Assembly (NCBI GenBank): GCA_023430885.1
Contig: JAEYYH010000015.1
Location: 3,743-67,742, forward strand
Length of the DNA: 64,000 bases
DNA from: Bacillota bacterium
GTDB lineage: Bacteria; Bacillota_I; Bacilli_A; RF39; UBA660
Reading direction: 5' to 3'
Shown here: positions 1 through 38,174 of the stretch, in pieces
Layout: every line of letters starts with the position of its first letter
Numbering within the stretch: the stretch's first letter is position 1
Translations under genes and position numbers: made by a program
The notes under the pieces: generated by a model
What the model saw: the letters and a program-made list of their open reading frames with translations, nothing else
What the model was told of the DNA's origin: nothing
Database searches by the model: none

Positions 1-309
1 ACTTCACCATCAAGATTTCTAAGGACAGCTTATTTAAAGAGTTTCACTTATATACCAGAAAAAGATGATGAAGTAATAAATACATGCTTCAATATTATGA
101 AAGGTGTTACAATACCAAAAGGCACGGTTATAACAAAACGAGGAACAAATGATTATACTCAGTATACCGCTTTTATAAATACTGATAGTGGCGATTACTA
201 TTTTAATACTTATTCTAATAATCAAATAACTAAAGTAAATATAAATCAAATTGATAGTGATAATATAATTTCATTAGGAAAAATTAATAAACACATGACA
301 TTTAATTAG
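1..309 (+). CDS. 3' end of a hypothetical protein. The reading frame is open from the window edge; it is Tyr/Thr/Asn-rich and possibly a phage or cell-surface structural protein.
   Basis: Frame 1 has no stop from nt 1 to 309. The track ORF 97..309 is the tail of this longer frame. Confidence 0.4.
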   Translation, partial: TSPSRFLRTAYLKSFTYIPEKDDEVINTCFNIMKGVTIPKGTVITKRGTNDYTQYTAFINTDSGDYYFNTYSNNQITKVNINQIDSDNIISLGKINKHMTFN

Positions 310-429
310 TTAAATAACATAACTATAATCAAAATATCAATTAAAAAGATTGATATTTTTATTATTTATAGACAAATTCAACCAAAAACAATATAATAGA
401 AGATATAGAAAATTTCAGGGGGAATTTTT

Positions 430-1590
430 ATGGATATTAAAAGAAATGTATGTGCAATAATTGATGGACAAGCTGGTAGTTGTGGAAAAGGTAAGGCAAT
501 AGGGCAGTATGCTCTAGAAAAAAACGTTGAAGTGGCTATAGCTAACTGTATGCCTAATGCTGGTCATACATTTAGTAGTAATGGTAAAAAAAGGATATTT
601 AGAAATATACCTGTTTCTTCAGTAAATCTTAATACTAAGTTGTTTTTAGGAGCAGGTTCTGTTATTGATATGGAAGTCTTAGAAAAAGAATATGAAGATA
701 ATAAAGACATTTTAGAAGGTAGAGAAATAATAGTCCATCCTATGGTGCCAATTATTGAGCAAAGACATATTGATAGAGAAAAACAAGAACTAAGATCAGG
801 TTCTACTTTTAAAGGTGGAGGAGCCTGCTTAGCTGAAAAAGTTATGCGTAGCCCAGAACTAAAATTCTTTAAGGAATTTAAAAATATAAAAGCTGATGCA
901 GATTATCATCAAAAGTTAATTGCTAGTTTAAAAGAGGCAAAACATGTTTTAATTGAGGGATCACAAGGATGTGATTTAGATTTAAATCATAGTGGACACT
1001 ATCCATACGTTACTAGTAGACAAATTTCAGTAGCGCAAATGTGTGCTGATTCAGGAATATCTCCAATGCTTCTTAAAGATATTATTATGGTTATAAGACC
1101 TTTTCCAATTAGAATTAGTAATACAACTAATATAGGCAAGAAAATATATAGTGGCGATTATGGGCATTCTGAAGAATTGACTTGGGATCAGATAAATATA
1201 GGTGCTTTTCTTGGAATATATCCTACAATGATTGATGAAGCAATGATTGAAGAGTGGAAAGATTTAGTTAAAGATTATGCTGAATATACAACAGTTACTA
1301 AACAAAAAAGAAGAATATTTGATATAGATATAGAATTACTAAAAAAGAACGTTAATATAAATACTCCAACTAGCATTTATTTAAACTTCTTTCAGCATTT
1401 AGGAACCCAATATGAAAATGTTTCTGGCAAATACGATGGGTACGGAAACATATACATAGACAAATACCAACGAGAATATTTAGCGTGGTTAGAAGGGGAA
1501 TTAGATGTCCCAATAACTATGCTAGGCACAGGTGCAGATTTAAAAGAATATATAGATAGAACACCATATATTAAAAAATTATCAAAATAA
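430..1590 (+). CDS. Adenylosuccinate-synthetase (PurA) family protein, divergent. The P-loop-like motif is GSCGKGK instead of GDEGKGK, so it may be PurZ-like.
   Basis: Motifs alignable to PurA: QAGSCGKGK vs QWGDEGKGK; NAGHT; GSTFKGGG vs GTTGRGIG; EGSQGCDLDLNHSGHYPYVTS vs [20 protein letters not shown]. The SD sequence gggggaa lies upstream. The protein is 386 aa, shorter than bacterial PurA. Confidence 0.7.
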   Translation: MDIKRNVCAIIDGQAGSCGKGKAIGQYALEKNVEVAIANCMPNAGHTFSSNGKKRIFRNIPVSSVNLNTKLFLGAGSVIDMEVLEKEYEDNKDILEGREIIVHPMVPIIEQRHIDREKQELRSGSTFKGGGACLAEKVMRSPELKFFKEFKNIKADADYHQKLIASLKEAKHVLIEGSQGCDLDLNHSGHYPYVTSRQISVAQMCADSGISPMLLKDIIMVIRPFPIRISNTTNIGKKIYSGDYGHSEELTWDQINIGAFLGIYPTMIDEAMIEEWKDLVKDYAEYTTVTKQKRRIFDIDIELLKKNVNINTPTSIYLNFFQHLGTQYENVSGKYDGYGNIYIDKYQREYLAWLEGELDVPITMLGTGADLKEYIDRTPYIKKLSK

Positions 1591-1641
1591 TATCATATAA
1601 ATTTATTTATATGATAGAAAATTAATATTGGAGGCGTTGTA

Positions 1642-2046
1642 ATGAAACAAATATCTAACGAAGATAAACAAGTTGGGATAAAGGAAAAAGCAATTGCTAA
1701 AATAATAACTATTACTTTATTTTCAATAGTTATTGTAGTGATTGTATCTATACTTGTAATTAAGTATTCATATAATAAAATTATTGAAGGGCTTTCTAAA
1801 AACACTTATTATGTTTTAGAAGTAGATGAAAACAATATAGAAAAGATAGTTTCGTTAATACAAGATGAAAAACAAACATATTGTGATTCTTTATATAAGA
1901 TAGAATATTATAATATGTTTCCTGACGGTACCTCTTATTTATTGTATTGTGAAGATGAAGATAATATAAAATTTAGTATTGATAAAGTTGGAACTGATGT
2001 GTTATCAAAATATATATATGATAATGGTACAAGAGGAGTAAGGTAA
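1642..2046 (+). CDS. Small single-pass membrane protein, hypothetical.
   Basis: SD ggagg is 8 nt upstream of the ATG. There is one hydrophobic helix (IITITLFSIVIVVIVSILVI). Confidence 0.5.
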   Translation: MKQISNEDKQVGIKEKAIAKIITITLFSIVIVVIVSILVIKYSYNKIIEGLSKNTYYVLEVDENNIEKIVSLIQDEKQTYCDSLYKIEYYNMFPDGTSYLLYCEDEDNIKFSIDKVGTDVLSKYIYDNGTRGVR

Positions 2047-2260
2047 TTATCATTTAAAAGTAGTTATAAAACATTAATATATCTAATATTAATGTTTTTA
2101 TATAGAATTAATCATATTAAAATGTCGATTTTTCTTTTTTATTTATATGTCATTTATGATATAATTAATTACAGGAAGTGATTTTATGTTAAATAAAATA
2201 ATATATAATCGATGTTGTGAGTATAATTATTAAACATATATTTAATTATAGGAGGAAGTT

Positions 2261-3658
2261 ATGAGATTATATAATACGTTATCAAGAGAAATAGAAGATT
2301 TTAAACCAATTAGTGATAAAGAGGTCACTATGTATACATGTGGTCCTACTGTATATCATTACGCTCATATAGGGAACTTAAGATCATATATATCAGAAGA
2401 TATATTAGAAAAAGCATTAAACTATTTAGGTTACAATGTAAAAAGATGTATGAATATTACGGATGTTGGACATTTAAGTAGTGATTCAGATAGTGGCGAA
2501 GATAAAATGCTTAAGGGTGCTATTAGAGAACATAAAACTGTTTTACAAATAGCTGCTTACTATACTGAAGCTTTTAAAAAAGATTGTCAAAAACTAAATA
2601 TAGCTTGGCCAAAAATTGTGTCTCCAGCTACAGATAACATTGACGAGTATATTAAAATAATAACTGAGTTATTAGAGACTGGTTATGCCTATATTGCAGG
2701 CGGTAATGTTTATTTTGATACGTCAAAATTAAAAGATTATTATGTGCTTACTAATCATAAAGAAGACGAAATGGTAGTAGGTGTAAGAGAAGGTGTTGAG
2801 GAAGACACTAACAAAAGAAACCAAGCAGATTTTGTACTTTGGTTTACAAAATCTAAGTTTGATGATCAAGAACTAAAATGGGAAAGCCCATGGGGATATG
2901 GTTATCCAGGATGGCACATTGAATGTTCTGGTATCTCTTTAAAATATTTAGGCGAATTTTTAGATATACACTGTGGTGGAGTAGATAATATATTTCCACA
3001 TCATACCAACGAGATAGCTCAGTCTGAAAGTTATTTAGGCCATAAATGGTGTAATTACTGGTTTCATGTTGAACATTTAAATGATAATACTGGTAAAATG
3101 AGTAAATCAAAAGGCGATTTTCTTATGGTTTCACTACTTGAAGAAAAGGGTTATAATCCACTAGCATATCGTTTAATGTGTATGCAATCACATTACCGTA
3201 AACAATTATTATTCACTTATGATGCTTTGGATAATGCAACAAATGCATACAATAAATTATTAAGCAAAATAAAAAACTTAAAAGAAAATAAAGAAGGAGA
3301 TATCGAAGGTGTCGATAATTATATCGAAAGTTTTAAGAATTCTCTAGCAGATGACTTAAATACTGCTACTTCGTTAACCATTTTATATGATGTTTTAAAA
3401 AGTGATTTAAATAATAATTCTAAATTATATTTAGTTTCAGAATTTGATAAGGTTCTTTCATTAAATTTATTAAATGATGAAGTTACAGAAATTAATGAGG
3501 ATACTAAAAAGTACATTGAAGAAATGATTGAAAAAAGAAATGCTGCTAAGAAAAATAAAGACTTTGCTCTAGCAGATGAAATAAGGGATGAACTTGCTAG
3601 TAAAAATATATTTATTAAAGATACTAGAGAAGGTACTACTTACGAAATTAAAGAATAA
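2261..3658 (+). CDS. cysS: Cysteine--tRNA ligase.
   Basis: HIGN (HIGH-class) motif, KMSKS motif, length 465 aa, SD aggagg. Confidence 0.95.
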   Translation: MRLYNTLSREIEDFKPISDKEVTMYTCGPTVYHYAHIGNLRSYISEDILEKALNYLGYNVKRCMNITDVGHLSSDSDSGEDKMLKGAIREHKTVLQIAAYYTEAFKKDCQKLNIAWPKIVSPATDNIDEYIKIITELLETGYAYIAGGNVYFDTSKLKDYYVLTNHKEDEMVVGVREGVEEDTNKRNQADFVLWFTKSKFDDQELKWESPWGYGYPGWHIECSGISLKYLGEFLDIHCGGVDNIFPHHTNEIAQSESYLGHKWCNYWFHVEHLNDNTGKMSKSKGDFLMVSLLEEKGYNPLAYRLMCMQSHYRKQLLFTYDALDNATNAYNKLLSKIKNLKENKEGDIEGVDNYIESFKNSLADDLNTATSLTILYDVLKSDLNNNSKLYLVSEFDKVLSLNLLNDEVTEINEDTKKYIEEMIEKRNAAKKNKDFALADEIRDELASKNIFIKDTREGTTYEIKE

Positions 3659-3701
3659 AAAGATAACACTCGATGTTATCTTTTCTATATAGGAGGATTC
3701 C

Positions 3702-4574
3702 ATGGACGGAGTAATTATAGTAGATAAACCAAAAGACTATACAAGTAGAGATGTAGTCAATGTAATAAGTAAAATATATCATACAAAAAAAGTTGGTCAC
3801 ACTGGTACTTTAGACCCTCTAGCGACTGGGGTGCTTGTTATATGTGTAAATAAAGCTACTAAGATAGTAGAGCTACTTACTAGCTACGATAAAGAATACA
3901 TTGCAACATTTAAATTTGGAATATTAACTGATACTTTAGATAGTACTGGAAGCATTTTGAAAGATGAAGAATGTATACTTGAAAAAGAAAGTTTAATTGA
4001 TGCTATGAAAAAAATTGAGGGAACATATATGCAAGAAGTGCCTATATATTCTGCAGTAAGAATAAATGGTAAAAAATTATACGAGTATGCAAGGGAAGGT
4101 TTAGAAGTTGAACTACCAAAACATGAAGTGACGATTTCTAACCTTGAATTATTAGATTTCAATGTAGAAGATAATCATACAATTGCAAAGGTTAAATGTC
4201 ATGTTTCAAAAGGTACCTATATAAGAAGTCTAGGTAATGATATTGCAAGCATTTTAGGAACTAATGCTATTATGACGGATTTAAGAAGAACAAAACAAGG
4301 GACATTTAGCATTGATAATAGCATAGAGTTAAAAGACATAACAGATAATACTAAATTAATTAGTATAAGTGAATGCTTAAATATGTATAAAAAAATTGTA
4401 GTAGATATAAAACTAGAAGAAGATATATTAAATGGAATAATCCTAGATAATATATATAGTGACGATAATATTTTATTTATCGACTCGGATAATAATCCAA
4501 TTGCGTTATATACTATATATGATAAAGATATAAATAAAATAAAACCATGGAAAATGTTTAAAAATAAAGTGTAA
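3702..4574 (+). CDS. truB: tRNA pseudouridine(55) synthase.
   Basis: N-terminal IIVDKPKDYTSRDVVN...GHTGTLDPLATGVLVICVNKATK is the TruB catalytic Asp motif. Confidence 0.9.
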   Translation: MDGVIIVDKPKDYTSRDVVNVISKIYHTKKVGHTGTLDPLATGVLVICVNKATKIVELLTSYDKEYIATFKFGILTDTLDSTGSILKDEECILEKESLIDAMKKIEGTYMQEVPIYSAVRINGKKLYEYAREGLEVELPKHEVTISNLELLDFNVEDNHTIAKVKCHVSKGTYIRSLGNDIASILGTNAIMTDLRRTKQGTFSIDNSIELKDITDNTKLISISECLNMYKKIVVDIKLEEDILNGIILDNIYSDDNILFIDSDNNPIALYTIYDKDINKIKPWKMFKNKV

Positions 4575-4606: not shown

Positions 4607-4687
4607 AAAACTCTTTTACATTTATTAAAAGTATGGTATAATTTATTATAGATAAAATAGAGTAAAAGGGAATTGAAGGTGCTGCTT

Positions 4688-6973
4688 ATGCAAAATAAAC
4701 CTATATACTTATGGCCATTTATTGTAGTATATAGAATTGTAATAATGATTCTAAAGCTCCCATTAGCTATAATACATTACTTTTTAATGGGATTCTTTTT
4801 TTCAATATATACATTAATAGAAATATTTGTTGATATGGGAATATTTATTTCTTTTGTTTGGTGGAAATTTATTAAATATTTATTCTTAGGAATATCTTTG
4901 CCTATTGTATTAATAGGAAGAACATTAAAGCACACTAAAGATACTGCTATTAATGAAGAAGCTATTATTCCAAAACATGTAAAAGAGACTTCTAAGAATA
5001 AGTTTCCTAAACCAGTAAAAGCAATAGCCGCCGCTGCAGCTACTGCAGGTGTACTTAATGCTGGACCATTACCAGCAAAGGAAATGAGTAAAGCTGAGAT
5101 TGGAAAAGTTGATAAAGAACTTGAAAAATTAAAAAAAGAAAATGAAAAAGAAGCTGCAATTCATCAAAAGAAAATGGATGAACTTCATAAAAAAGAAGAA
5201 ATTAAAGCTGCTAAAGAAAAAATAAAATTAGATAAAATAACAAAGAAAAAAGAGGCTGAAGAATTAGCTAGACAAAAACAAGATGCTGAAAATCAAATAA
5301 AAGAACAGCAAATGCTTATGAGAGAAGAAAAACGTAAGCAAGAAGCTGCGGTAGCATTTGAGAAGAAAAAACTGGAAGAGTCCATAGTTAAAGAAAAGAA
5401 AGAAAAGCCAAAAAGCTTAGCCCAAACAAAAAAAGAACAAGCAAAAGCTGAAAAAATAAGATTAAAACAAGAAAAAATACAACATAAAAAAGAATTATTA
5501 GCAGAGCGAAAAAAATTCAAAGAGAAAAATACATATGTTAATGATAAAGTTGTTATTGAGAAGAAAAATCTTGGTGACTATATTAACTCTGGATTAGAGC
5601 AATTAATTAAAGTTCCTAAGATGTTTAAAGAGAAAGTTAAAAACAGTTTCTCTAATTCAGCATTTGTAAAGAATAGACGTAATGTTGAAGATATGCATCG
5701 TGAAGCATTGCTTATCGACTTTACAGGCGATGATGCCAAAAAGAGCGATAAAAAAATTGTTTATGAATATGTTGGAAAGAATGTTGAAGGAAAATTAGTA
5801 AAGGCATATTTTGAAGCTTTTTCTAAAGTTGAAGTTCACTCATTCTTACTTAGTGAAGGTTTTGAAGTATATAGTATAAAGACCAGTCCTTTGATTCAGT
5901 TCTTGCATGGAGCAAAACAATCTAGATCTGTTAGATTTAAAAATAAAGATTTAATATTTTTCTTAACTCAATTATCAACTTATATAAAAGCAGGTATACC
6001 ACTTGTTGAATCACTTAGAATACTAAGTAGACAGTTTCCTCAAAAGGGATATCAAAAAGTATTTAGGTCTATGATTTATGAGTTGACGATGGGGGATAAC
6101 TTTAGCGTAGCTTTAGAGAAGCAAGGTAATGCTTATCCAAAATTACTTGTAAACATGGTAAAGACTTCAGAAATGACTGGAGAACTTCCAGAAACACTTG
6201 ATGATATGCAAATATATTTTGCAGAAGCAGAAAAAACAAAAAAACAAATGATTACAGCACTTACTTATCCAACGATTGTATTTGTGCTTGCAATTGCTGC
6301 TATTACCTTCATCATGATATATATAGTTCCACAGTTTGCTGGAATATATGCTGATATGGATAATGCTAAATTGCCAGGCATAACAGTAGCAATCATGAAT
6401 GTCAGTGATTTCTTAAAGAATTATTGGATATATTTAATTGCGGTAGTATTTGGCGTTATATTTATATTTGGCTATTTATATCGTAATGTTAAATTATTTA
6501 GAACATTAATTCAGTGGTTTTTAATGAAATTACCAGTTATAGGGGATGTAATGATATATAATGAAGTTACGATGTTTACTAAAACATTTGCTTCTTTATT
6601 AAAACATAATGTATTCATTACTGATACAATGGAAATTTTGAATAAGATTACGAATAATGAAATTTGGAAAATGATTATTTTAGACACAATTACAAACCTA
6701 GCGAAAGGTGAGAAAATATCTCTTGCTTTCCAAGATCACTGGGCTGTACCAATTCCAGCTTACGAAATGATTGTTACTGGCGAAAGAACTGGTCAGTTAC
6801 CTGAAATGATGCAAAAAGTATCAGATTATTATCAAGAACTTCATAAGAATGCAGTAGGGAGAATTAAAGCATTTATTGAACCAATACTTATTTTATTTCT
6901 TACCGGAGCAGTAGGTGTTATTGTTCTTTCAATAGTAATACCAATGTTTGATATGTATTCACAATTAAGTTAG
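4688..6973 (+). CDS. pilC: Type IV pilus assembly platform protein (PilC/GspF family) with a long N-terminal extension of TM helices plus a Lys/Glu-rich helical region.
   Basis: The C-terminal ~400 aa contain two GspF-type domains (FLTQLSTYIKAGIPLVESLRIL...; LAFQDHWAVP...). The ATG at 4688 has the SD gaaggtg; the track TTG at 4673 is less likely. The N-terminal 360 aa are extra relative to typical PilC. Confidence 0.8.
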   Translation: MQNKPIYLWPFIVVYRIVIMILKLPLAIIHYFLMGFFFSIYTLIEIFVDMGIFISFVWWKFIKYLFLGISLPIVLIGRTLKHTKDTAINEEAIIPKHVKETSKNKFPKPVKAIAAAAATAGVLNAGPLPAKEMSKAEIGKVDKELEKLKKENEKEAAIHQKKMDELHKKEEIKAAKEKIKLDKITKKKEAEELARQKQDAENQIKEQQMLMREEKRKQEAAVAFEKKKLEESIVKEKKEKPKSLAQTKKEQAKAEKIRLKQEKIQHKKELLAERKKFKEKNTYVNDKVVIEKKNLGDYINSGLEQLIKVPKMFKEKVKNSFSNSAFVKNRRNVEDMHREALLIDFTGDDAKKSDKKIVYEYVGKNVEGKLVKAYFEAFSKVEVHSFLLSEGFEVYSIKTSPLIQFLHGAKQSRSVRFKNKDLIFFLTQLSTYIKAGIPLVESLRILSRQFPQKGYQKVFRSMIYELTMGDNFSVALEKQGNAYPKLLVNMVKTSEMTGELPETLDDMQIYFAEAEKTKKQMITALTYPTIVFVLAIAAITFIMIYIVPQFAGIYADMDNAKLPGITVAIMNVSDFLKNYWIYLIAVVFGVIFIFGYLYRNVKLFRTLIQWFLMKLPVIGDVMIYNEVTMFTKTFASLLKHNVFITDTMEILNKITNNEIWKMIILDTITNLAKGEKISLAFQDHWAVPIPAYEMIVTGERTGQLPEMMQKVSDYYQELHKNAVGRIKAFIEPILILFLTGAVGVIVLSIVIPMFDMYSQLS

Positions 6974-6992
6974 TCTTAGCAAGGGGGTATTT

Positions 6993-7757
6993 ATGGATTT
7001 GTATTATACAATAGTTATGTTTGTATTTGGAACCATCTTTGGTTCCTTTTACAACGTAGTAGGCGATAGATTACCGGATGGTAAGTCAATAATTAAGCCA
7101 GGAAGTCATTGTCCAAAATGTGGGCATATGCTTAAACCAATTGAGTTGGTGCCAATTTTCTCTTTTATAATTCAAGGTGGAAAGTGTAAAAAGTGTAAAT
7201 GCAAAGTTCCAATCTTTCATCCATTATATGAAATATTTGTTGGATTGTTATTTATGTTTTGCTATCTTTCATTTGGATTTAGTGCTAATTTAGTAGTAGC
7301 ATTAACATTTGCATCAATGCTTGCTATACTTATAGTAAGCGATTATTACTACATGATAATACCAGATGAGGTACTTGTAGTGTTTGGGGTTTTACTTGTT
7401 ATTGAAACGGCAATATTTCAAGGACCTATGGTACTATTAACTTCAATTTTAAATGGATTAATAGCTTTTGGATGTATGTTTGGATTAAAAAAATTTGGTG
7501 ATCTATTATTTAAAACTGATTCTATGGGTGGTGGCGATATTAAGTTACTATTCTTCTTTGGATTTGTTTTGGGCTGGGAGATGGCAATATTTGCTATATT
7601 CCTTGGATCATTAATTGGGTTGCCAGTTTCTTTAATAATATTAAAAACAAAAAAAACAAATATTATACCATTTGGACCATTTTTATCAATAGGCGCACTT
7701 ATTATAATGCTAACGCATTTTGATATTACAAAATTATTAAGTATATTACTTCAGTAA
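6993..7757 (+). CDS. pilD: Prepilin peptidase (A24 family).
   Basis: N-terminal zinc-ribbon CPKCGH...CKKCKC, multiple TM helices, GGGDIKLL motif. Confidence 0.85.
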   Translation: MDLYYTIVMFVFGTIFGSFYNVVGDRLPDGKSIIKPGSHCPKCGHMLKPIELVPIFSFIIQGGKCKKCKCKVPIFHPLYEIFVGLLFMFCYLSFGFSANLVVALTFASMLAILIVSDYYYMIIPDEVLVVFGVLLVIETAIFQGPMVLLTSILNGLIAFGCMFGLKKFGDLLFKTDSMGGGDIKLLFFFGFVLGWEMAIFAIFLGSLIGLPVSLIILKTKKTNIIPFGPFLSIGALIIMLTHFDITKLLSILLQ

Positions 7758-7761
7758 TATG

Positions 7762-8907
7762 CTTTTTTTTTGTATGATAATTTGTCAAATCAATTGCAAC
7801 AGTTAGTTAAATACTCATTAAAAGATTCATTTGGTGTCTTGTAGTTTATACATTTTCTAGGTCTATCATTAAGAAGTGTAAGTGTGTCTTGCTCTTCTTT
7901 TTCATTTGTTTTAGATAAATCCATTTGCTTTGGATAAAATTCTCTTAATAATCCGTTTGAATTTTCATTTGTTCCTTTTTGCCATGCACAATATGGATCT
8001 GCAAAATACATATTTGTATTGAGTTCTTCTTCTATACGTTTCCAACCTGCAAATTCTTTTCCTCTGTCACATGTTATTGTTTTAATAGCTTGTTGTGGGA
8101 ATTCTTTTAATAATTCAATTATTGCATTGGTAACAGTTTCTTCTTTTCTGTCTGGTATCCATTTAATTAAATATAACCTAGATTTTCTTTCTGCTAACGA
8201 TACAAAACAATATTTACTTTTTAAAGTATAATTATCGATTTTTCCTGAAACTACAGTATCTGCTTCCCAATGTCCAAACGTATTTCTTTTGTATACTTCT
8301 CTAGGACGTTTTTTTATTGTTTTACCTAAATTAAATCTTCCTCTTGTCTCTGTTGGTCTTTTGAATTTTCCTCTTCGTCTTAAATGTTCTATATTTGTTT
8401 TAGGAATATATCCTAAGTGAATCCATCTATAAATAGTAGATAAAGAAGGGAAAATATTTGGTTTATCAGAGGCATTTCTATTTACTATTTGATCTGGTGA
8501 CCAATGCAACTCTATTTTGTTTTTTATATAATTTATTGATTGTTTATTTGTACTTAATGGTCTATGACAATTAATTCTTCTTTCCTTATATTTTTTATTT
8601 GCAATAACTGGAGAATATCCAACTACTGAATAGTTTATTGATTTTTTATAAGAATTTCTTTTCAGTTCTCTAGAAATTGTAGAAACATTTCTATCAAGAA
8701 TTTTTGCCATTTCTCTTAAAGACATATTCATTTGCTTAAATTTACTTATACAAGCACGTTCTTCTATGGTAAGATGTATATAGTTCATATTATTACTCCT
8801 TAATGTTTGATTAGACACCAACATTATAACATGAGTAATATATGAACTTTTTTGTTTGTAATTATCAAGTGTTGCACTTGTTATTATAAATTATCGTATA
8901 AAAAAAG
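7762..8907 (-). mobile_element. IS30-family insertion sequence (~1.15 kb) inserted in the pilD-pilB intergenic region.
   Basis: Imperfect terminal inverted repeats of about 38-40 bp: 7762-7801 ctttttttttgtatgataatttgtcaaatcaattgcaaca vs the reverse complement of 8870-8907 ctttttttatacgataatttataataacaagtgcaaca. A single transposase ORF lies inside. There is a possible 3-bp direct repeat ATG at both junctions. Confidence 0.8.
7790..8824 (-). CDS. IS30-family DDE transposase.
   Basis: N-terminal HTH (LREMAKILDRNVSTISRELKRN) and a DDE core typical of IS30 (HWEADTV...DRGKEF...). Length 344 aa. Confidence 0.9.
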   Translation of the reverse strand: MLVSNQTLRSNNMNYIHLTIEERACISKFKQMNMSLREMAKILDRNVSTISRELKRNSYKKSINYSVVGYSPVIANKKYKERRINCHRPLSTNKQSINYIKNKIELHWSPDQIVNRNASDKPNIFPSLSTIYRWIHLGYIPKTNIEHLRRRGKFKRPTETRGRFNLGKTIKKRPREVYKRNTFGHWEADTVVSGKIDNYTLKSKYCFVSLAERKSRLYLIKWIPDRKEETVTNAIIELLKEFPQQAIKTITCDRGKEFAGWKRIEEELNTNMYFADPYCAWQKGTNENSNGLLREFYPKQMDLSKTNEKEEQDTLTLLNDRPRKCINYKTPNESFNEYLTNCCN

Positions 8908-8925
8908 ATGATATTTATTATCATC

Positions 8926-10572
8926 TTATAAATTAGTTATTTCTGGTATACCTGATGTAGAATTATTTGTTACTACATTATTTGCTTCTACTACACCAGG
9001 ATTTAATGTTTCTGGTGTAACTATACCAGCAGTAGGAACACCACTGATAACATCAGTAACCGGTTGCACAGGCTGCGTTCCATAGTTAACTGTATTTGGA
9101 ATTGCTTCTGCAACATAAGGATTTACTGGTGCTACTTGGGCAACTGGTGCCTCATAAGCTATTGGAGCTTCAGTAGGTACTACAGAAGGAATAACTGTAT
9201 TAGCAACTAATGGGATATTATTGTTAATATCGTTTGTATTATCAAAAGTAGTAGCTAAATTGTTACCTGTAATTTCTGAAATACCAGCAGTAGCAGGGGC
9301 CGGAATTTGTTCGCCACTATTTTCTGCGTTTGCAATTTCAGTGAATTCAAGAGCTTTCTTAAGATCTAATTCACCAGCTAATTTATCATCATCTTCAAGT
9401 TCTATTAATTTAAGTACTTCTTCAAATGTAGAATGTCCTTCGATAACTTTTTCAAGTCCATCTTGTAACAATGTTATAACATCAGAACCATATACAAGAC
9501 CACGAAGTTTTTCTTTTGGCATACCGCTTGATAAAGCATCACGAATATCTTGATTTATAACAAGAACTTCATGAATAGCTATACGACCAGTATAACCGTT
9601 GCCACACTCTTCGCACCCTACAGCAGAATATATTTCATTAACTTGTTTATTTAAAACTTTCCTGAATAATCTTTGTTCATATTCATTTGTTTTTCTTAAC
9701 GCTTTACATTTTGGACATAATCTACGAGCTAATTTTTGTGAAATTATTCCAGTTAATGCACTAGATAAAAGGTAGCGTTCAACTTCCATATCTAGTAAAC
9801 GTTCAATTGTATTAAGTGAATTGTTGGTGTGGATTGTAGATAATACTAAGTGACCTGTAATAGAAGCACGAACTGCTATTTTGGCCGTCTCAGTATCACG
9901 AATTTCTCCTATCATTATTATGTTAGGATCCTGACGTAAAATAGAACGTAGGGCAGTGGCAAAATTAAGTCCAATTTCACTATTAACTTGAACTTGGTTT
10001 ATACCTTCAATGTCCATTTCTATTGGGTCTTCAACAGTTATAAGATTAGTGTCCTCTTTATTTAATCTTTGAAGTATTGAGTATACTGTAGTAGATTTAC
10101 CACTACCAGTAGCTCCGGTAACTAATATGATACCGTTTGGAACACCAATCATATATAATACTTTATTAAAATTTGTAGCACTGAAATCTAATTGTTCTAG
10201 TCCATTTAAACTTTTTGTATAGTCAAGAATACGAATAACGATCTTCTCACCATTACTAACGGGTAGAACAGATACACGAAGATCTAAGTCCATGTCCTGA
10301 AGAGTAGCTTTGATAGCACCATCTTGAGGCAATCTAGACTCAGTTATGTTCATCCCTGCTATTATTTTAATACGAGTAGTTAAGTTCTTTTTAACTGCAT
10401 TAGGTATTTCAGCATAGTCTTGTAATGCTCCATCTATACGAATCCTTGCCTTCATGTATTTTTCTAATGGGTCGAAGTGAATATCACTCGCACCTCTCTT
10501 AGATGCATCAACAAGTATTTCATTAACGATTTCAACTATCGGCATCTTTTCAAAATCAAATGTTTTTAACAC
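8926..10572 (-). CDS. pilB: Type IV pilus/T2SS assembly ATPase (GspE/PilB/PilT family) with a ~150-aa Pro/Val/Thr-rich low-complexity C-terminal tail.
   Basis: Walker A GATGSGKSTT, Asp box, His box, tetracysteine motif CPKC...CEEC. There is no N1 domain; the tail PAPATAGISEITGNN...TNL is unusual. Confidence 0.9.
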   Translation of the reverse strand: MLKTFDFEKMPIVEIVNEILVDASKRGASDIHFDPLEKYMKARIRIDGALQDYAEIPNAVKKNLTTRIKIIAGMNITESRLPQDGAIKATLQDMDLDLRVSVLPVSNGEKIVIRILDYTKSLNGLEQLDFSATNFNKVLYMIGVPNGIILVTGATGSGKSTTVYSILQRLNKEDTNLITVEDPIEMDIEGINQVQVNSEIGLNFATALRSILRQDPNIIMIGEIRDTETAKIAVRASITGHLVLSTIHTNNSLNTIERLLDMEVERYLLSSALTGIISQKLARRLCPKCKALRKTNEYEQRLFRKVLNKQVNEIYSAVGCEECGNGYTGRIAIHEVLVINQDIRDALSSGMPKEKLRGLVYGSDVITLLQDGLEKVIEGHSTFEEVLKLIELEDDDKLAGELDLKKALEFTEIANAENSGEQIPAPATAGISEITGNNLATTFDNTNDINNNIPLVANTVIPSVVPTEAPIAYEAPVAQVAPVNPYVAEAIPNTVNYGTQPVQPVTDVISGVPTAGIVTPETLNPGVVEANNVVTNNSTSGIPEITNL

Positions 10573-10669
10573 TAAAATTCATCCCCTTTTTAAACTTTTG
10601 GACTAGCATTTATCCTGAATATATTATATAATATATTTAAAGTAAAAACAATAAGGAAGGACGACTTTT

Positions 10670-11641
10670 ATGAAAAAATTAGGTAAAAAGGGGTTTATGC
10701 TAACAGAAACTTTAATTGTTTCCACCATGCTTATAACAATACTAATAATACTATATGTACAATTTAAAAATGTTACTAGAAGTTTTTATGCAAGTTTTAC
10801 TTATAATACAGTTGGGAGTAGTTATAATTTATATAATGCTAAATTATATATAGAGCAGTCTGATTATAGCTTAATTGCAGAAAAATTAAAAACAAATACA
10901 TATATTGATTTGACCGATTGTCCTGGATCATATTTCACTAGTACTGACTACTGTGAAACATTATTTACTAAACTTGGTGTTACAAAAATAATAATGACTA
11001 ATGAAAATTTACATAGTTTAATTGAAGATAATGATTTTGACGGTGATTTTAATGACTTTTTAAATAGTATAGATTATGAATCGACTGACGGTTATCGCCT
11101 AATTGGATCGTTTAAAGATGGTACTTATGCAAGTATAAGAATATTAAATGGTGACAAATTTAATTTTGTTATATCCAATGCCTGCACAGCTACAAAGGAA
11201 GTTGCTTATAGAATAAATCATATAGTTATTCCTGAATCCAGTGCTACAGAAGGTTATAATTTAGCTGAGGATACAGTAGGAAAATCAGCTTGTGGTTCTA
11301 ATATAGTAGTTACAAATTATGCAATAACAAGTAATAGTTGCTATTATTTAACAAAAGTAAGTCCATCTAATACAATTGATTTAGGAATAGATGAAGATGC
11401 AAACAAGGCTACTATATATTATAGTAAATATGCATCTAATTTAACTATTAATCATTATAAAGTTGGTACTACGCAAGTTCTCTCTGATCCTACTATAGTA
11501 AGTAGTTTCTGTGGAAATGAGATATTAGTTGAACAATATAAAAAAAATATTGCCGGATATAATTATGACAGTGTAGAGCAAGAAACAGTAACGATGACTA
11601 GTACAGATACAACAGTTAATCTATACTATAAAGAGGTGTAA
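10670..11641 (+). CDS. Type IV pilin-like protein (class III signal peptide), large (323 aa).
   Basis: KKG|FMLTETLIVSTMLITILIIL has Gly at -1 and Glu at +5, with a hydrophobic N-terminal helix. Good SD. Confidence 0.7.
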   Translation: MKKLGKKGFMLTETLIVSTMLITILIILYVQFKNVTRSFYASFTYNTVGSSYNLYNAKLYIEQSDYSLIAEKLKTNTYIDLTDCPGSYFTSTDYCETLFTKLGVTKIIMTNENLHSLIEDNDFDGDFNDFLNSIDYESTDGYRLIGSFKDGTYASIRILNGDKFNFVISNACTATKEVAYRINHIVIPESSATEGYNLAEDTVGKSACGSNIVVTNYAITSNSCYYLTKVSPSNTIDLGIDEDANKATIYYSKYASNLTINHYKVGTTQVLSDPTIVSSFCGNEILVEQYKKNIAGYNYDSVEQETVTMTSTDTTVNLYYKEV

Positions 11642-11645
11642 TAAG

Positions 11646-13256
11646 ATGAATAAAAAAGGTTTTACAACAGTTGAATTGTTAGTTTCTTTTACTCTTGTTT
11701 CTATAATAGTATTTTTCTTATTTGAAATAATTTTTGTTTTAAAAGATTTATATGTTTCATCTGGTATAAAGACAAAATTACTTACAAAGCAAGCTGTAAT
11801 ATCTGAAATGATTAATGACGATTTTACTTCGTTAACTTTAGTATATGCTGATAAATGTGCTTCATCAGATGCTAATGCTGACAAAGAAGTATGTATTAAC
11901 TTTGCCTTTCAAGATATTACTAAGCAATTAGTAGTAGATAGAGAAAACGGGACTATTACTTGGGGAAACATAACAACTGCTTTAATAAGTGGTAGTGAGT
12001 TTGGAAATATAAAAATAAATAAGGAAACTTTAGTTCATGCTGAAGATACCGAGACGTTAAATGGTATTCTTACTATAAATATTCCAATTTACCATAAGAT
12101 TATCGAAGGGGAGGATTTTGGAATAAATATTAATTATCAATATAATAGTAATTCTGTATCTCTTGCTAATATCAATGTCAGTGACATAGTAGATGCTGAA
12201 AAAAAAGTTTATTTAATACTTGATGAGGATATTAAATTTCAAAATGTTGATTATATCGATCCTGGTTACTTCGTTGTTGATACAACAACAGGTCAAGTAA
12301 TAACAGATGCAACTGAACTTTCTAATTTAGTTAAGATAACTGGTGAGGTTGGTAATGAGCTAGGAGAAACTTATTATTTAACTTACACAATATATGATAT
12401 GAATAACGGTATAATGAGTCAGGCTACAAGAAGTGTTACAGTCCTTGCTTCAGAATATACTTATCAGATGACGGGGGATATTAAAACTCTTAATATTCCA
12501 ATTGCTGGTACTTATAAAATTGAAACATGGGGTGCATCAGGTGGCGGAACAACTATTATGAAAGGCCGTGGCGGATACACTTCTGGAACTTTTAAATTTA
12601 GTACGTTAGATACGCTATATATAGCAGTAGGCGGAGAAGGCACTACTGGTATTAGTAATACTGCTGCTGTTGGTGGTTATAATGGTGGCGGTGATTCCGG
12701 AGTTAGTACTTCTGATTATGCATCATCTGGCGGTGGCGCTAGCGATGTTAGATTAAACTCAAATTCACTTTCATCAAGAATAATCGTTGCCGGTGGTGGA
12801 GGCGGTGGTGGCTCACGAAATGACTCTACTGCTACATGTAATGGCGGTGCTGGCGGCGGAGCAACTGCCGGTATTGGAACATGTTCTGCTGAAAGTTATA
12901 TTGGTGGTGCAGGAACACCAACTGCTGGTGGTGCAGCAGCTACATATAATACAAACATAATTACGTCACCAACTTCTGGAAAAATTGGTATAGGAGGAAA
13001 TGGCGCAAGTTATCAAAACGTTACTGTAACCTCATCAGCCGGTGGTGGTGGCGGTGGTTACTACGGTGGCGGCGGTGGTTCACGTTTTGGAGGCGGGGGC
13101 GGTGGCTCAAGTTTCTGCGATTCATTAGCTGCAACTACGTGTGATACATTAGCACTGGGAACAGATAGTTTTCCAACCATTGACGGAAGAAATTATGAAA
13201 CGGGTCATATTGGTAATGGCTATGTTAAAATAACATTAATAAGTATGGCATCATAA
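11646..13256 (+). CDS. Type IV pilin-like protein with a C-terminal glycine-rich low-complexity domain (536 aa).
   Basis: NKKG|FTTVELLVSFTLVSIIVFF prepilin motif (E+5). The C-terminal third contains GGGGGGGS, GGGGGGYYGGGGGSRFGGGGGGS runs and a locally elevated GC content. Confidence 0.65.
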   Translation: MNKKGFTTVELLVSFTLVSIIVFFLFEIIFVLKDLYVSSGIKTKLLTKQAVISEMINDDFTSLTLVYADKCASSDANADKEVCINFAFQDITKQLVVDRENGTITWGNITTALISGSEFGNIKINKETLVHAEDTETLNGILTINIPIYHKIIEGEDFGININYQYNSNSVSLANINVSDIVDAEKKVYLILDEDIKFQNVDYIDPGYFVVDTTTGQVITDATELSNLVKITGEVGNELGETYYLTYTIYDMNNGIMSQATRSVTVLASEYTYQMTGDIKTLNIPIAGTYKIETWGASGGGTTIMKGRGGYTSGTFKFSTLDTLYIAVGGEGTTGISNTAAVGGYNGGGDSGVSTSDYASSGGGASDVRLNSNSLSSRIIVAGGGGGGGSRNDSTATCNGGAGGGATAGIGTCSAESYIGGAGTPTAGGAAATYNTNIITSPTSGKIGIGGNGASYQNVTVTSSAGGGGGGYYGGGGGSRFGGGGGGSSFCDSLAATTCDTLALGTDSFPTIDGRNYETGHIGNGYVKITLISMAS

Positions 13257-27152: not shown

Positions 27153-28223
27153 ATGCAGAATTGTACTAATTACCAAAGAAAAAACGTATTAAGATTAGGT
27201 GTTCGTTTAACTCTAGGTTTTGTTTTAATTGCTGCCATAATCGTCTCCTTACTACAAATTACTCTAGCTATAATATATACAAACAAACAAACTGATAAAA
27301 TTTTATATACTTATAATATTAATCAAAAAGCAGATTATAGTGTAGAATTATATGACAATAATTTTGTTGATACAACTACCATGGAATCTGGCAAAGTATA
27401 TATTTCAGATTTAGTTAAACAAGTTAATTTTAAATTTTTATATACGTATTCGGGAACAACCAATAATGACTTCAAATATAATTATAATGTAGTTGGAAAG
27501 CTTATTGGTCAAAGCAATGCTAATGAAACCACTGAAACAGTATGGGAAAAATCATATACTTTAGTAGAGGAAGTTACAGAAACAAAGAAACAAACTTCCA
27601 GTTTTGCAATCGATATTCCTCTTGCACTAGATTATTCTTTATATGCAAATGAAGTATCCGAATTTAAAAAAAATTTTGGAATGATACTTTCGACAAAATT
27701 ACAAATTACAATGACAGTTAATGTTTTAAGTAGTTACAATGAAAAAGAAATTAGTAATACTCAAAAAATAATTATGTATATACCTATTGGGTTACAAGCT
27801 TTTTCTATAACAAGTGATTATAAAGAAAATACTGTAGATTATATTTATGATGTCGGTAGTCGTCTGAAGTTTTACAATGATTCTAATTTTATAATGGGAA
27901 CAATCGAATTTATTATTTCTTTTTTCTTTTTTGTATATTTATTCAAACTAATATTTAATATAAAATGTAAAAACAAATATTCTAAAAGATTAGATCAAAT
28001 CTTGAAAACTTATGGTAGTATAATCGTAGAGGTTTTGAACCCAGTTAAGGAAGAAAAATATGAAATAATTGAAGTGAAAAACTTTGATGAAATGATTGAC
28101 TTAGAAGAAGAACTTCGAATACCAATTACATTTAATGAAGTTATACCAACAAGATATGGCGTATTTACTTTGTTACATAATAATACTATTTATAAATATA
28201 GTTTAAAAAATAAGGATTTATAA
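27153..28223 (+). CDS. Bitopic membrane protein, hypothetical (large extracytoplasmic domain between two TM helices).
   Basis: SD aaggaga. N-terminal TM LGFVLIAAIIVSLLQITLAII and a second TM IEFIISFFFFVYLFKLIF. Confidence 0.5.
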   Translation: MQNCTNYQRKNVLRLGVRLTLGFVLIAAIIVSLLQITLAIIYTNKQTDKILYTYNINQKADYSVELYDNNFVDTTTMESGKVYISDLVKQVNFKFLYTYSGTTNNDFKYNYNVVGKLIGQSNANETTETVWEKSYTLVEEVTETKKQTSSFAIDIPLALDYSLYANEVSEFKKNFGMILSTKLQITMTVNVLSSYNEKEISNTQKIIMYIPIGLQAFSITSDYKENTVDYIYDVGSRLKFYNDSNFIMGTIEFIISFFFFVYLFKLIFNIKCKNKYSKRLDQILKTYGSIIVEVLNPVKEEKYEIIEVKNFDEMIDLEEELRIPITFNEVIPTRYGVFTLLHNNTIYKYSLKNKDL

Positions 28224-31939: not shown

Positions 31940-33778
31940 ATGTATAATGAAAAAAATGATGGGTTTTCTGTAAGAGACATTTTTATCCAACTATTATTCA
32001 TAATTTTATTTGTGTTTATTTTAGTTTGGTTATTTCCAACTAAAGCTAGTGTAAATAATCAATTTGCTGATTTAAACAATAGATTAGATGCTCTAACTAG
32101 TGGGATATTTAATGATAACTTACAAACAATGAAAGATGCTGCAGTAAGTTACTATACTACTGAAAGATTACCAGCAAATATTAATGATGTTAAATCAATG
32201 ACATTAAAAGAAATGTTAGCTGAAAAATTATTAGTGGAATTTACTGATGCAAATGGTAATTCATGTAGTTTAACAGATTCATATGTAGAAGTAGTTAAAC
32301 TTGAAGATGAATATCAAATGAAAATTAATTTATCATGTACTGATAATGATGCTTATATAATCGTTCATTTAGGTTGCTACGATTATTGTGATGCTTCAGG
32401 TGTATGTGAAAAAGAAGAAACAACAACAATAACAACAAATAATCCAACAACTCCAATTATACCAACAACAAAAACTTGTACTTATGAGTATAAGTTAGTA
32501 ACTAATGGTCAATGGGGTAATTATGGTTCATGGACTGGCTGGTCTAAAGATAAGGTTACTACAACCGACTATAGACAGGTAGAAATGAAGAAAGAGCAAG
32601 TTATTACTGGTACAAAGCAAGTTCAAACTGGTACTAAAGTAGAAACAATAAATGCATATTCAAGCACAACTACTTACTGTCCAAGTGGATATTCAAAAAA
32701 TAGTGCTGGTACTAAATGTGTTAGAACATCTTCAGCATACTACAAGGCTAAATGTCCAGATGGATATACATTAAGTAATGGTGTATGTTATGGTACTAAC
32801 GTTTCAACAGTAAGTGTTGATCCAGTATGTCCAAGTGGATACACAAGAAGTGGTACTACATGTTATAAGACTGGTACTAGCCAAGTAACAATGACACCAA
32901 GTTGTCCAAGTGGATACTCATTAAGTGGAAATTACTGTTATAAAACAGGTTCTTCTACTGTAACAATGACACCAAGTTGTCCAAGTGGATATAAATTAAG
33001 TGGCAACAATTGTTATAAAACTGTTACTTCAGGAGGAACAACTACTTATACTAGAGGTGCTTATGTAACAACAAAAACAGGTACTTCAGTTCCTTCAAAT
33101 AGTAGTTCTTACTATTATGAAACTGTATCATCTGATTACGTATATGATTGTTCAAGTACATGTGCTATGAGAACTGTTTATACATATAAAGTATATAAAG
33201 CTGTTGCTACTACTAGTGGTGGTGGAACAACAACATTAACAACTTCTGCATCATGTGCTACAAATTATTCATTAAGTAATGGTGTATGTTATAAGACTGT
33301 TGATGCAAGTGATAAAACAGCTGCATCATGTGCTACTAACTATGTATTAAGTAATGGTGTATGTTACAAAACTACAACAACAACTGATACTAAGAGCGCT
33401 ACATGTCCAACAGGATATTCATTAAGCGGTCAAAGATGTTATAAATCAAATTCATCAACTGTTACATTAACACCAAGTTGTCCAACAGGATATACATTAA
33501 GTGGTGAAAGATGTTATGGTACTGTATCTAGTACAACTAGTTTATTAACATCAACTTCATATTCATGTCCAAGTGGTTATACATTAAGTGGTTCTACTTG
33601 TTCAAAAACTGTTCCAGTTTTTGGAGTAGAAAATGTTTATGAAACTGTTACATACTATAGATACAAAGAAAGAGAATATATTTCAGGTACTGTAAAAACT
33701 GTATGGAGTAAATCTGACAACGATACTACTTTAATTAATCAAGGTTATTCTTTAACTGGAAATAAGAAATGTAGTTAA
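31940..33778 (+). CDS. Membrane-anchored cysteine-repeat protein (tandem CxxGYxLSGxxCY repeats), hypothetical surface protein.
   Basis: N-terminal TM anchor, a Thr-rich linker, then at least 8 copies of S/T-C-P/A-S/T-G/N-Y-x-L-S-G/N-x-x-C-Y-K-T. Two copies are near-identical at the DNA level (32888-32962 vs 32963-33037). Confidence 0.7.
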   Translation: MYNEKNDGFSVRDIFIQLLFIILFVFILVWLFPTKASVNNQFADLNNRLDALTSGIFNDNLQTMKDAAVSYYTTERLPANINDVKSMTLKEMLAEKLLVEFTDANGNSCSLTDSYVEVVKLEDEYQMKINLSCTDNDAYIIVHLGCYDYCDASGVCEKEETTTITTNNPTTPIIPTTKTCTYEYKLVTNGQWGNYGSWTGWSKDKVTTTDYRQVEMKKEQVITGTKQVQTGTKVETINAYSSTTTYCPSGYSKNSAGTKCVRTSSAYYKAKCPDGYTLSNGVCYGTNVSTVSVDPVCPSGYTRSGTTCYKTGTSQVTMTPSCPSGYSLSGNYCYKTGSSTVTMTPSCPSGYKLSGNNCYKTVTSGGTTTYTRGAYVTTKTGTSVPSNSSSYYYETVSSDYVYDCSSTCAMRTVYTYKVYKAVATTSGGGTTTLTTSASCATNYSLSNGVCYKTVDASDKTAASCATNYVLSNGVCYKTTTTTDTKSATCPTGYSLSGQRCYKSNSSTVTLTPSCPTGYTLSGERCYGTVSSTTSLLTSTSYSCPSGYTLSGSTCSKTVPVFGVENVYETVTYYRYKEREYISGTVKTVWSKSDNDTTLINQGYSLTGNKKCS

Positions 33779-36107: not shown

Positions 36108-36135
36108 AAAGTAGATTACTCTACTTTTTTATTTT
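36107..36135. terminator. Bidirectional terminator between the merR-like gene and glmS.
   Basis: A-run, aagtagattactctactt hairpin, then T-run. Confidence 0.6.
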
Positions 36136-37959: not shown

Positions 37960-38135
37960 TGTGCATTTTTTGCATAATAAAAATATATGTGTGATATATT
38001 TTTTGTCGTAATATTGATTTTACTATTTGTAATATATCTTTCGAATACACTTCCGTAGTAGCATCCGCTGATTACCTTATAATATAAGTTCGATAACTAC
38101 TATCCTCGTCAGCCCTTAGGCCCATGCGCTAATTA
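37960..38135 (-). ncRNA. glmS ribozyme: glmS ribozyme (GlcN6P-responsive self-cleaving riboswitch) in the glmS leader.
   Basis: The minus-strand RNA reads ...uuA|GCGCAUGGGCCUAAGGGCU GACGAGGAUAGUAGUUAUCGAACUUAUAUUAUAAGGUAAUCAGCGGAUGCUACUACGG.... This matches the conserved P2/P2.1 core GACGAGGAUGGAGGUUAUCGAA...GGCGGAUGCCUCC with compensatory changes (GUAGUAG/CUACUAC). Confidence 0.7.
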
Positions 38136-38174
38136 AAATGTTTCAGTTCTATCCTCCTATGAACATAATAACTT

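Follow-up and report, generated by a model that had tools for sequence, protein, structure and literature searches.

The locus described here raises the question of what kind of surface structure would be built from two unusually large type IV pilins, one platform protein, one ATPase and one prepilin peptidase, all encoded side by side. It occupies positions 4,688 to 13,256 of a 64,000-nucleotide stretch of the forward strand of contig JAEYYH010000015.1 (GenBank assembly GCA_023430885.1, positions 3,743 to 67,742), from a Bacillota bacterium placed by GTDB in Bacilli_A; RF39; UBA660. This whole stretch is called the window, and all coordinates refer to it unless another contig is named.

Type IV filaments (T4F) are ubiquitous, their assembly is still unresolved, and the eight-protein Com pilus is the field's minimal model. 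Judged from its sequence, the present locus probably encodes a core-only T4F of uncultured, low-G+C, gut-associated Bacilli, which shows binding modules that vary between lineages and which most likely serves adhesion.

The G+C content of the window is 28-30%. Related contigs were compared with it and numbered L001 to L056, L001 being the window's own contig. They are labelled as Bacilli, Mycoplasmatota or Tenericutes metagenome-assembled genomes (MAGs), and several isolate names point to the rumen or to the rabbit, mouse or human gut. A first reading of the letters by a model (the original prediction) had described five pilus genes and one insertion sequence (IS). All six were verified in place, none of the features noted is an artefact, and all five open reading frames (ORFs) are intact. 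The gene order is pilC-pilD (+), pilB (-), pilin 1-pilin 2 (+), ylbJ (-) and, further on, mutS; pilB is thus convergent with pilD and divergent from the pilin genes.

Two modular pilins

Pilin 1 (10670-11641, +; 323 amino acids, aa) and pilin 2 (11646-13256, +; 536 aa) were originally predicted to be giant class III pilins, and both the sizes and the signals stand. A degenerate prepilin pattern has five matches in the six-frame translation of the 64 kb; these two alone begin close to the N-terminus of a long ORF and also have a complete hydrophobic stretch. The cores of the signals are KKG/FMLTE and KKG/FTTVE (the slash separates Gly-1 from Phe+1), and both are followed by long N-terminal helices in AlphaFold2 (AF2) models, as is proper to the T4F superfamily. 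Gly-1, Phe+1 and Glu+5 are invariant or nearly so in pilin alignments of 20 to 63 homologues.

In pilin 1, the signal MKKLGKKG/FMLTE and the pilin module take up aa 1-168 (10670..11173, +). G8, F9 and E13 are conserved, these prepilin residues being invariant or nearly so across 26-30 homologues, and the module can be aligned with the 165-174-aa orthologues of three related loci (L007, L008 and L009). The AF2 model has a mean predicted local distance difference test score (pLDDT) of 85, with an alpha1 helix at residues 7-44 followed by an alpha/beta domain. The first profile scans gave no direct Pfam or NCBIfam match for this protein. Its remainder (aa 169-323; 11174..11641, +) is modelled with a pLDDT of ~90 as two MucBP-like beta-grasp repeats of ~75 aa each. 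The best Foldseek match of the repeats is Lactococcus YwfG (E = 7.5e-9); SHIRT and the Lactobacillus MUB type-2 repeat are matched at E < 1e-3, the InlB B-repeat and the Spr1345 mucin-binding domain more weakly, and MucBP structures solved by nuclear magnetic resonance are also among the matches. MucBP is present in the precomputed annotation of three pilin 1 homologues, and the homologue P0142 (~46% identical to pilin 1) scores 27.8 bits with the Pfam model against a cut-off of 23. The MucBP assignment put forward for pilin 1 of the window draws on these homologues and on the fold match. The two tandem repeats resemble the MucBP/MubR repeats of Gram-positive adhesins (MUB, YwfG, InlB B-repeat) in size and in their beta-grasp fold. 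In contrast to these, however, they are joined to a type IV pilin and not to an LPXTG or S-layer-anchored protein, fall below the Pfam cut-off and have conserved Cys pairs.

In pilin 2, the signal MNKKG/FTTVE and the pilin module extend over aa 1-198 (11646..12239, +), as delimited by the conserved motif, the AF2 model and a module-free orthologue in L015. The prepilin signal of this glycine-rich protein remains conserved when it is aligned with homologues: G5, F6, T7 and E10 do not vary among 20 sequences, nor T7 and E10 among 63. The AF2 model, based on 63 homologues, has a mean pLDDT of 90 and consists of a helix at residues 8-62, a beta-sheet module to ~198 and an Ig-like domain at ~200-280. 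The latter, a Big_3-like spacer domain (aa 199-280; 12240..12485, +), has a Pfam Bact_surface_Ig-like match at E = 0.0015, is PF16403-like, gives weak fold matches to Big_3 (2kpn) and BT2262, and is recorded in most homologues.

The rest of pilin 2 (aa 281-536; 12486..13256, +) is an ALK/LTK-type TNF-like and glycine-rich domain. The Pfam model PF12810 (ALK_LTK_GRD) matches it at E = 1e-37 with 130.9 bits against a cut-off of 24.5, and covers profile positions 7-243 of 243. The original prediction noted long poly-glycine tracts at the end of the protein; these are not of low complexity. In the AlphaFold model the C-terminal domain is folded (pLDDT 92-98) and is of the ALK/LTK type: the best 21 PDB fold matches are all glycine-rich domains (GRD) or TG domains of ALK/LTK, with E ~1e-8 and probability 1.00 in Foldseek. 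The glycine runs fall in confidently modelled (pLDDT > 92) regions of the PF12810 domain that are neither helix nor strand. Therefore, the glycine tracts are the core of a folded, binding-type domain and do not represent disorder.

The full-profile match and the top fold matches make the ALK/LTK TG domain (PF12810; PDB 7LRZ, 7NX1, 7MZY, 7NWZ) the nearest named relative of known structure in the PDB, but the version in pilin 2 is bacterial, is fused to a type IV pilin, is only ~20% identical and lies outside any kinase or EGF context. Its nearer structural relatives are phage proteins. In a viral structure library these reach 34% identity at a root-mean-square deviation of ~5 A, and a few of them are annotated as short tail fibre, tail collar or virion structural protein.

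Both pilins thus have the build of a modular type IV pilin in the published sense, i.e., a pilin signal and module followed by a domain foreign to type IV pilus (T4P) biology (PMC8179133). That type IV pili can present adhesin modules by means of such pilins is established (Raynaud et al. 2021, PMC8179133). The IPR012902-PF12810 architecture and a PF12810-containing PilY1 are listed, uncharacterised, in Datasets S1 and S2 of the same paper (PMC8179133), and these architecture tables were all that was found in the literature on PF12810 in bacteria or in pilins. The closest described parallels are the modular minor pilins PilB (vWA) and PilC (lectin) of Streptococcus sanguinis (Raynaud et al. 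2021, PMC8179133; Shahin et al. 2023), in which a class III signal and a small pilin module likewise precede a bulky binding domain, in a monoderm organism and with a proposed direct role in adhesion. S. sanguinis, however, has two ordinary major and three minor pilins together with PilM/N/O and PilT, whereas two pilins are seen here, both of them modular in this lineage, and the grafts are two MucBP-like repeats and an Ig domain with an ALK/LTK-type GRD.

Module swapping between related loci

The block of five genes together with ylbJ recurs in every related locus long enough to hold it: it is complete in eight loci (L001, L002, L004, L006, L007, L010, L011 and L015) and partial, being cut at contig ends, in five others (L003, L008, L009, L014 and L056). 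The mutS gene adjoins the pilus locus in all relatives.

Across the loci the stop-to-stop ORF lengths range from 172 to 351 aa for pilin 1 and from 162 to 552 aa for pilin 2, so that pilin orthologues of ~160-200 aa do exist. For example, L007, L008 and L009 have a pilin 1 of ordinary type with ~165-174 aa, and both pilins are short in L056 (4516-5618). In L015 (4530-6087), pilin 1 carries an unrelated C-terminal domain of ~180 aa with a weak GalBD_like match, while pilin 2 ends after the pilin module. In L014 (8282-10191), pilin 2 carries an unrelated and unannotated module of ~230 aa. The pilin modules are constant, but from one lineage to another the modules at the C-terminus are exchanged, acquired or dropped; the large sizes of the two pilins in the window are lineage-specific grafts on a conserved two-pilin core.

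As a separate observation, four contigs with this low-G+C, Bacilli-type locus (L012, L014, L018 and L056) are deposited in MAGs named 'uncultured Muribaculaceae', and two of them (L014 and L056) also hold ylbJ. The label is probably due to mis-binning.

The platform protein PilC

PilC is encoded by a single ORF at 4688-6973 (+) and has 761 aa. Its start is the ATG at 4688; an alternative TTG at 4673 would add 5 aa, but the ATG is taken as the true start because the homologues begin with the same MQNKPIY. The core of the protein (5753..6973, +) is a PilC/GspF platform with two T2SSF domains and three transmembrane (TM) helices. The T2SSF model matches it in two stretches with E = 1.2e-44 and 151.7 bits, over the Pfam gathering score, and the NCBIfam GspF/PilC models are matched over their full length. 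In an alignment with PDB sequences, residues 18-413 of Myxococcus xanthus PilC correspond to aa 356-757. Since the alignment starts only at aa 356, the first ~355 aa constitute an extension.

The extension is made up of a hydrophobic part (aa 4-80), an Ala-rich linker (~108-120), a Lys/Glu-rich part (136-282) and a conserved part which is not of low complexity (283-355). The original prediction of a TM and Lys/Glu-rich module before the GspF core is borne out in this respect, but the Lys/Glu-rich part is ~150 aa long and not 200, and the single alpha-helix that it was said to form is unproven.

The N-terminal hydrophobic module (aa 1-85; 4688..4942, +; delimited by Kyte-Doolittle hydropathy) begins with NKPIYLWPFIxVYR and continues with hydrophobic, aromatic and basic repeats. 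Its ratio of nonsynonymous to synonymous substitution rates (dN/dS) is 0.14-0.21. Some 40 diverse homologues keep the start motif and varying numbers of Y[KR]xx[KR]Y..G repeats, as do most of the database homologues. The repeats could be TM hairpins or in-plane membrane helices. It may be added that the hydrophobic N-terminus can be read as 1-5 or more units of ~16-20 aa with the pattern hydrophobic-S-x-x-V-Y-[KR]-x-x-[KR]-Y-x-x-x-G (4688-4942 in the window; homologues P0193-P0271), and that a Pfam search with this aromatic and basic hydrophobic repeat gave no match.

The Ala-rich linker and the Lys/Glu-rich, helix-prone region together span aa 86-282 (4943..5533, +). They are defined by composition, differ in length among relatives and have a dN/dS of 0.12-0.15. 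Residues 136-282 contain 29% K and 20% E, with 2 Pro or Gly in 147 aa and a net charge of +14, and are helix-prone. The density of i/i+4 salt bridges is marginally raised, ~1.8 standard deviations over shuffles. A coiled coil was considered and rejected, the occupancy of heptad a/d positions being 0.35 vs 0.36 in shuffles.

The juxta-core segment (aa 283-355; 5534..5752, +) has invariant columns in all five aligned PilC proteins and is specific to this PilC clade. It is also found in L007, where the extension is without the hydrophobic module. When aa 283-360 were compared with 1.84 billion representative sequences, 26 matches only were obtained. The full-length ones among them are 598-827 aa, i.e., of PilC size, and P0188 and P0192 are PilC homologues; the shorter matches may be fragments. 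No other protein context for the segment emerged among the 26. A domain search of the PilC N-terminus had been proposed with the original prediction; no Pfam or NCBIfam domain was found, either in the PilC extension or in the PilB tail described below. A match to AuxB (E = 2.8e-5; 23 bits vs a cut-off of 300) was put down to composition.

The extension was predicted to be a true fusion, and a frameshifted separate gene had been named as the alternative. The latter is rejected: the extension and the core form a single ORF in all eight loci that contain PilC, and among the best 120 database homologues (121 sequences in all) 117 have at least 150 extra residues (median 283 aa, maximum 495), the four short ones looking like fragments. 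The dN/dS of the extension parts (0.12-0.21) agrees with a fusion. Judged by these comparisons, the extension is a trait of the whole clade. At its junction with the first cytoplasmic domain, it must be cytoplasmic.

The ATPase PilB and the peptidase PilD

PilB is encoded at 8926-10572 (-) and has 548 aa. The original prediction gave it no N1 domain and a tail of disordered type, and both features are present. The core (9397..10572, -) is a PilB/GspE-type ATPase with an N2 domain and a C-terminal domain with a tetracysteine motif (Pfam T2SSE E = 2.8e-122, 408.4 bits). The translation contains the Walker A motif GATGSGKST, the Asp, Walker B and His boxes and CxxC...CxxC, and C286, C289, C320 and C323 are invariant in the alignment with relatives. 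Residues 8-391 align with residues 199-585 (of 588) of Geobacter metallireducens PilB and 117-496 of Vibrio cholerae EpsE. Similarly, the NCBIfam GspE and PilB models match only from their positions 106 and 177 onward, the latter (TIGR02538) over positions 177-560, and the PDB alignments begin at residues 176-199 of the PilB proteins. Because all these alignments begin past the N-terminal region of the references, the N1 domain is missing.

The C-terminal tail (aa 393-548, 156 aa; 8926..9396, -) is of low complexity, is rich in N, A, V, T and P and has two GI[SP]EIT motifs. It varies from ~40 to 156 aa among relatives, and the whole protein from 521 to 548 aa inside one cluster of 90% identity. 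With a dN/dS of 0.32-0.36, this indel-prone tail is the most relaxed part of the locus. The two motif copies, GISEITGNN (aa 431-436) and the C-terminal GIPEITNL (aa 541-546), are kept in L002 and L004 (window 8929-9396, -); they may be a short linear interaction motif.

PilD (6993..7757, +; 254 aa) is a prepilin peptidase/N-methyltransferase. It matches Pfam A24_N_bact (E = 5e-30, 103.7 bits) and Peptidase_A24 (E = 2e-14, 54 bits), both over the gathering scores, and its translation contains a GGGD motif and a CxxC...CxxC motif.

The dN/dS values were obtained by the Nei-Gojobori method for the window vs two relatives. They are 0.04-0.21 in every segment of the locus except the PilB tail. On this measure all parts, including the PilC extension, are coding sequence under purifying selection, and the range of 0.04-0.36 over all segments indicates constraint on the whole locus. 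The oddities of PilC and PilB are, by the comparison with homologues, traits of the whole clade and not of this locus.

Which kind of type IV filament

The A24 peptidase, the ATPase of the PilB/GspE family and the platform with two T2SSF domains, all over the Pfam gathering scores, together with the two class III pilins, place the system in the T4F superfamily. Its place within the superfamily is less regular. With the type IVa pilus (T4aP) models, PilB scores 459.9 bits vs a cut-off of 675.65 and PilC 250 and 215 vs 700, and there is no N1/MshEN domain. With the Com models, the ComGA score is 260.9 bits vs 300 and the ComGB score 132.2 vs 240, and there are two prepilin ORFs, not five. With the models of the type II secretion system (T2SS), GspE reaches 475.6 bits vs 630 and GspF 260.9 vs 424. 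By sequence, the system belongs with the PilB/GspE and PilC/GspF branch, but every equivalog cut-off is missed. The departure from a canonical T4aP, as originally predicted, is upheld.

Neither pilM/N/O/T, a secretin nor further pilins were found at the window locus or within 10 kb either side in the eight complete related loci, and the sole actin-like ATPase in the window is FtsA, beside ftsZ. Likewise, no secretin, GspL/M/C or GspH-K were called in the window locus or in the related loci. Compared with the T4aP of Clostridia and other Firmicutes (pilA-pilB-pilC-pilD-pilM-pilN-pilO-pilT), the locus has PilB, PilC and PilD homologous to the T4aP/T2SS branch and equally short leaders (5-8 aa). 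In contrast to it, the locus has no PilM/N/O/T within the distance examined, an N1-less PilB encoded divergently from the pilins, and a PilC with an N-terminal extension.

The set of genes is like that of the core-only Com pilus (ComGA, ComGB, ComC, ComGC-GG), which provides a precedent for a filament with only a platform and an ATPase (PMC10191384). The main alternative to an adhesive filament is accordingly that the locus encodes the DNA-uptake pilus of this lineage, a Com-like competence pilus on which the grafted modules are secondary. The likeness extends to the core composition of ATPase, platform, peptidase and pilins only, without PilMNO (PMC10191384) and with no retraction ATPase in the locus, and to the ATPase, which lacks N1 as ComGA does. 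Moreover, one source annotates a pilin 1 homologue as ComGC, and the neighbouring mutS is constant in all relatives. Nevertheless, we consider this reading improbable. The GspE and PilB models score much higher than ComGA with the ATPase (475.6 and 459.9 vs 260.9 bits), as does GspF compared with ComGB with the platform (261 vs 132 bits), the two Com scores being below their cut-offs; the PilC/ComGB comparison points the same way. PilB retains the C-terminal tetracysteine region typical of GspE/PilB. The two pilins do not correspond to the five of ComGC-GG and carry adhesin-type modules swapped between lineages, and a 355-aa platform extension is a further difference. In the partial annotation of the window ORFs, no comEA, comEC or comFA came to notice.

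A second alternative, which we regard as quite unlikely, is a short endopilus of the T2SS type, acting as a piston that pushes or exposes proteins through the monoderm wall while the large pilins stay cell-associated. With the ATPase and the platform, GspE and GspF are indeed the NCBIfam models that score highest, a retraction ATPase is lacking, the pilins are very few, and subunits with such bulky modules might pack poorly into a long fibre. However, the GspE, GspF, PilB and PilC cut-offs are all missed, neither the secretin nor GspL/M/C or GspH-K accompany the genes, no conserved candidate substrates are encoded in the locus, and modular pilins are known to enter true pili (PMC8179133).

A decaying or non-functional state of the locus in the present strain, with the IS and the low-complexity expansions as signs of relaxed selection, is very improbable: an IS30 element does lie inside it and the PilB tail is indel-prone with the highest dN/dS, but the five ORFs are intact, the IS lies between convergent stop codons and disrupts nothing, dN/dS is well below 1 in every segment, and the extensions are kept clade-wide and are not strain-specific.

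Proposed mechanism and significance

The adhesive filament remains the best reading. The original prediction had offered "adhesin-tipped or gliding-type" filaments; gliding is unsupported by anything in the locus. In the mechanism proposed, PilD would cleave and probably N-methylate the two prepilins, and the N1-less PilB/GspE-type ATPase, presumably a hexamer, would drive the PilC platform. The platform would lift the pilins from the membrane into a surface filament, which would carry the binding modules grafted on the conserved pilin modules. The most likely role would be adhesion in the gut, either to glycans of host or mucus or to the surfaces of other cells; this role is suggested by the kinds of module, by the way they change from lineage to lineage and by the related contigs, which appear to come from the gut, and it agrees with the concept established for S. 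sanguinis PilB and PilC (PMC8179133). As for the PilC extension, we infer that the membrane-tethered, charged region and its conserved segment may stabilise or position the PilB-PilC complex without PilM/N/O, GspL or N1.

Several points weigh against this interpretation. The Pfam MucBP model (PF06458) gives pilin 1 of the window only 16.9 bits (E = 0.011), under the gathering threshold of 23. Ligand binding by a bacterial PF12810 domain would be an extrapolation from ALK/LTK and from the occurrence of the fold in phages. The Foldseek TM-scores of the pilin models are modest (0.2-0.45), because the query models hold several domains. Both pilins keep Glu5, grafts occur on either one across lineages, and either could be the major pilin. 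The roles suggested for the PilC extension and the PilB tail are based on their position and conservation. Finally, further pilins, PilM/N/O/T or a comG operon may be encoded elsewhere in the genome.

A stronger version of the proposal is that the five genes are the whole machine, with two pilins where the Com pilus has five, and with neither PilMNO, a retraction ATPase nor a tip complex of four minor pilins; the PilC extension would take over the scaffolding of the accessory proteins and of N1, and both subunits might carry swappable modules, one of them perhaps decorating the whole fibre with MucBP-like domains. We put this forward tentatively, as it is rather doubtful. Should the machine nevertheless consist of these five genes alone, no bacterial type IV filament would be simpler. 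For the question whether a filament can do without the minor-pilin tip complex and the accessory membrane proteins, the conserved five-gene system would be a simpler natural test case than the Com pilus.

Type IV filaments, modular pilins, core-only machines and the pilin-PF12810 architecture are all already known. In the literature searched, no paper was found on their combination here, i.e., a syntenic five-gene system across a clade of uncultured Bacilli, with two pilins of which either or both are modular, an extended platform and an N1-less ATPase of the GspE/PilB type. The locus provides an unusually clear natural record of module swapping, in which the same two scaffolds bear MucBP-like, Ig and ALK/LTK-type, other or no modules. 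The ALK/LTK glycine-rich fold on a pilus subunit offers a testable binding context for the bacterial domain. For gut ecology, the system is a candidate factor for colonisation by lineages that only metagenomes have revealed so far.

The IS30 element, regulatory sites and other features of the window

An IS of the IS30 family (7772..8867, -) lies between the convergent pilD and pilB genes. Its transposase ORF (7790-8824, 344 aa) matches the NCBIfam model transpos_IS30 (NF033563) with 282.6 bits vs a cut-off of 80 and has an HTH_38 domain. Relative to the empty site in L002 the insert is ~1.1 kb, within the size of IS30 elements (~1-1.2 kb); its ends are uncertain by a few bases, the terminal repeats being short and imperfect. 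The element occurs in the window only and is absent from L002, L004, L006, L007, L010, L011 and L015. On this comparison it is strain-specific and intergenic, disrupts no gene and is irrelevant to the design of the system. In L006, a relative at 52% identity, a 171-aa ORF (6928-7443) without a Pfam match lies between pilD and pilB, where the window has the IS. The same contig has a 1065-aa MucBP-containing surface protein (120-3317) and a 135-aa ORF (3327-3734) ahead of pilC.

A promoter-like site with a TG extension (TTTACA-16-TATAAT; 4615..4642, +) lies upstream of pilC. It matches the consensus at 11 of 12 positions and is the best in the region, but such sites are not enriched vs shuffles, and this one is a consensus match only. 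An AT-rich inverted repeat, aagatgatatttattatcatctt, lies over the pilB stop codon (8903..8929) and is kept in L002. It is likely a shared terminator for the convergent pilD and pilB genes. The terminator scan missed it because of its low G+C.

A scan with Rfam for regulatory RNA close to the pilus locus returned only a distant glmS ribozyme. This glmS ribozyme/riboswitch (RF00234, 60.2 bits; 37983-38141, -) lies upstream of a 603-aa ORF (36135-37946, -), which from its position we presume to be glmS. Three other ORFs (27153-28223, 31940-33778 and 33883-35187, all +; 356, 612 and 434 aa, respectively) have no NCBIfam match at E <= 1e-5.

Upstream of cysS, a 386-aa ORF (430-1590, +), noted together with 1642-2046 (+), matches best NCBIfam PurZ (succino-amino-deoxyadenylate synthase) at E = 3.8e-59 with 200 bits (cut-off 300) vs 196 bits (cut-off 368) for the short archaeal-type PurA, and may simply be a short PurA. 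In L002 (1-1500), a 229-aa HD-domain protein is encoded next after the PurZ/PurA-like orthologue, an arrangement that recalls the PurZ/DatZ clusters of phages. Duplicated permeases of the FtsX/MacB type (864 and 833 aa; 41604-44198 and 53016-55517, both +), with weak ADOP-family matches, flank murG-ftsA-ftsZ.

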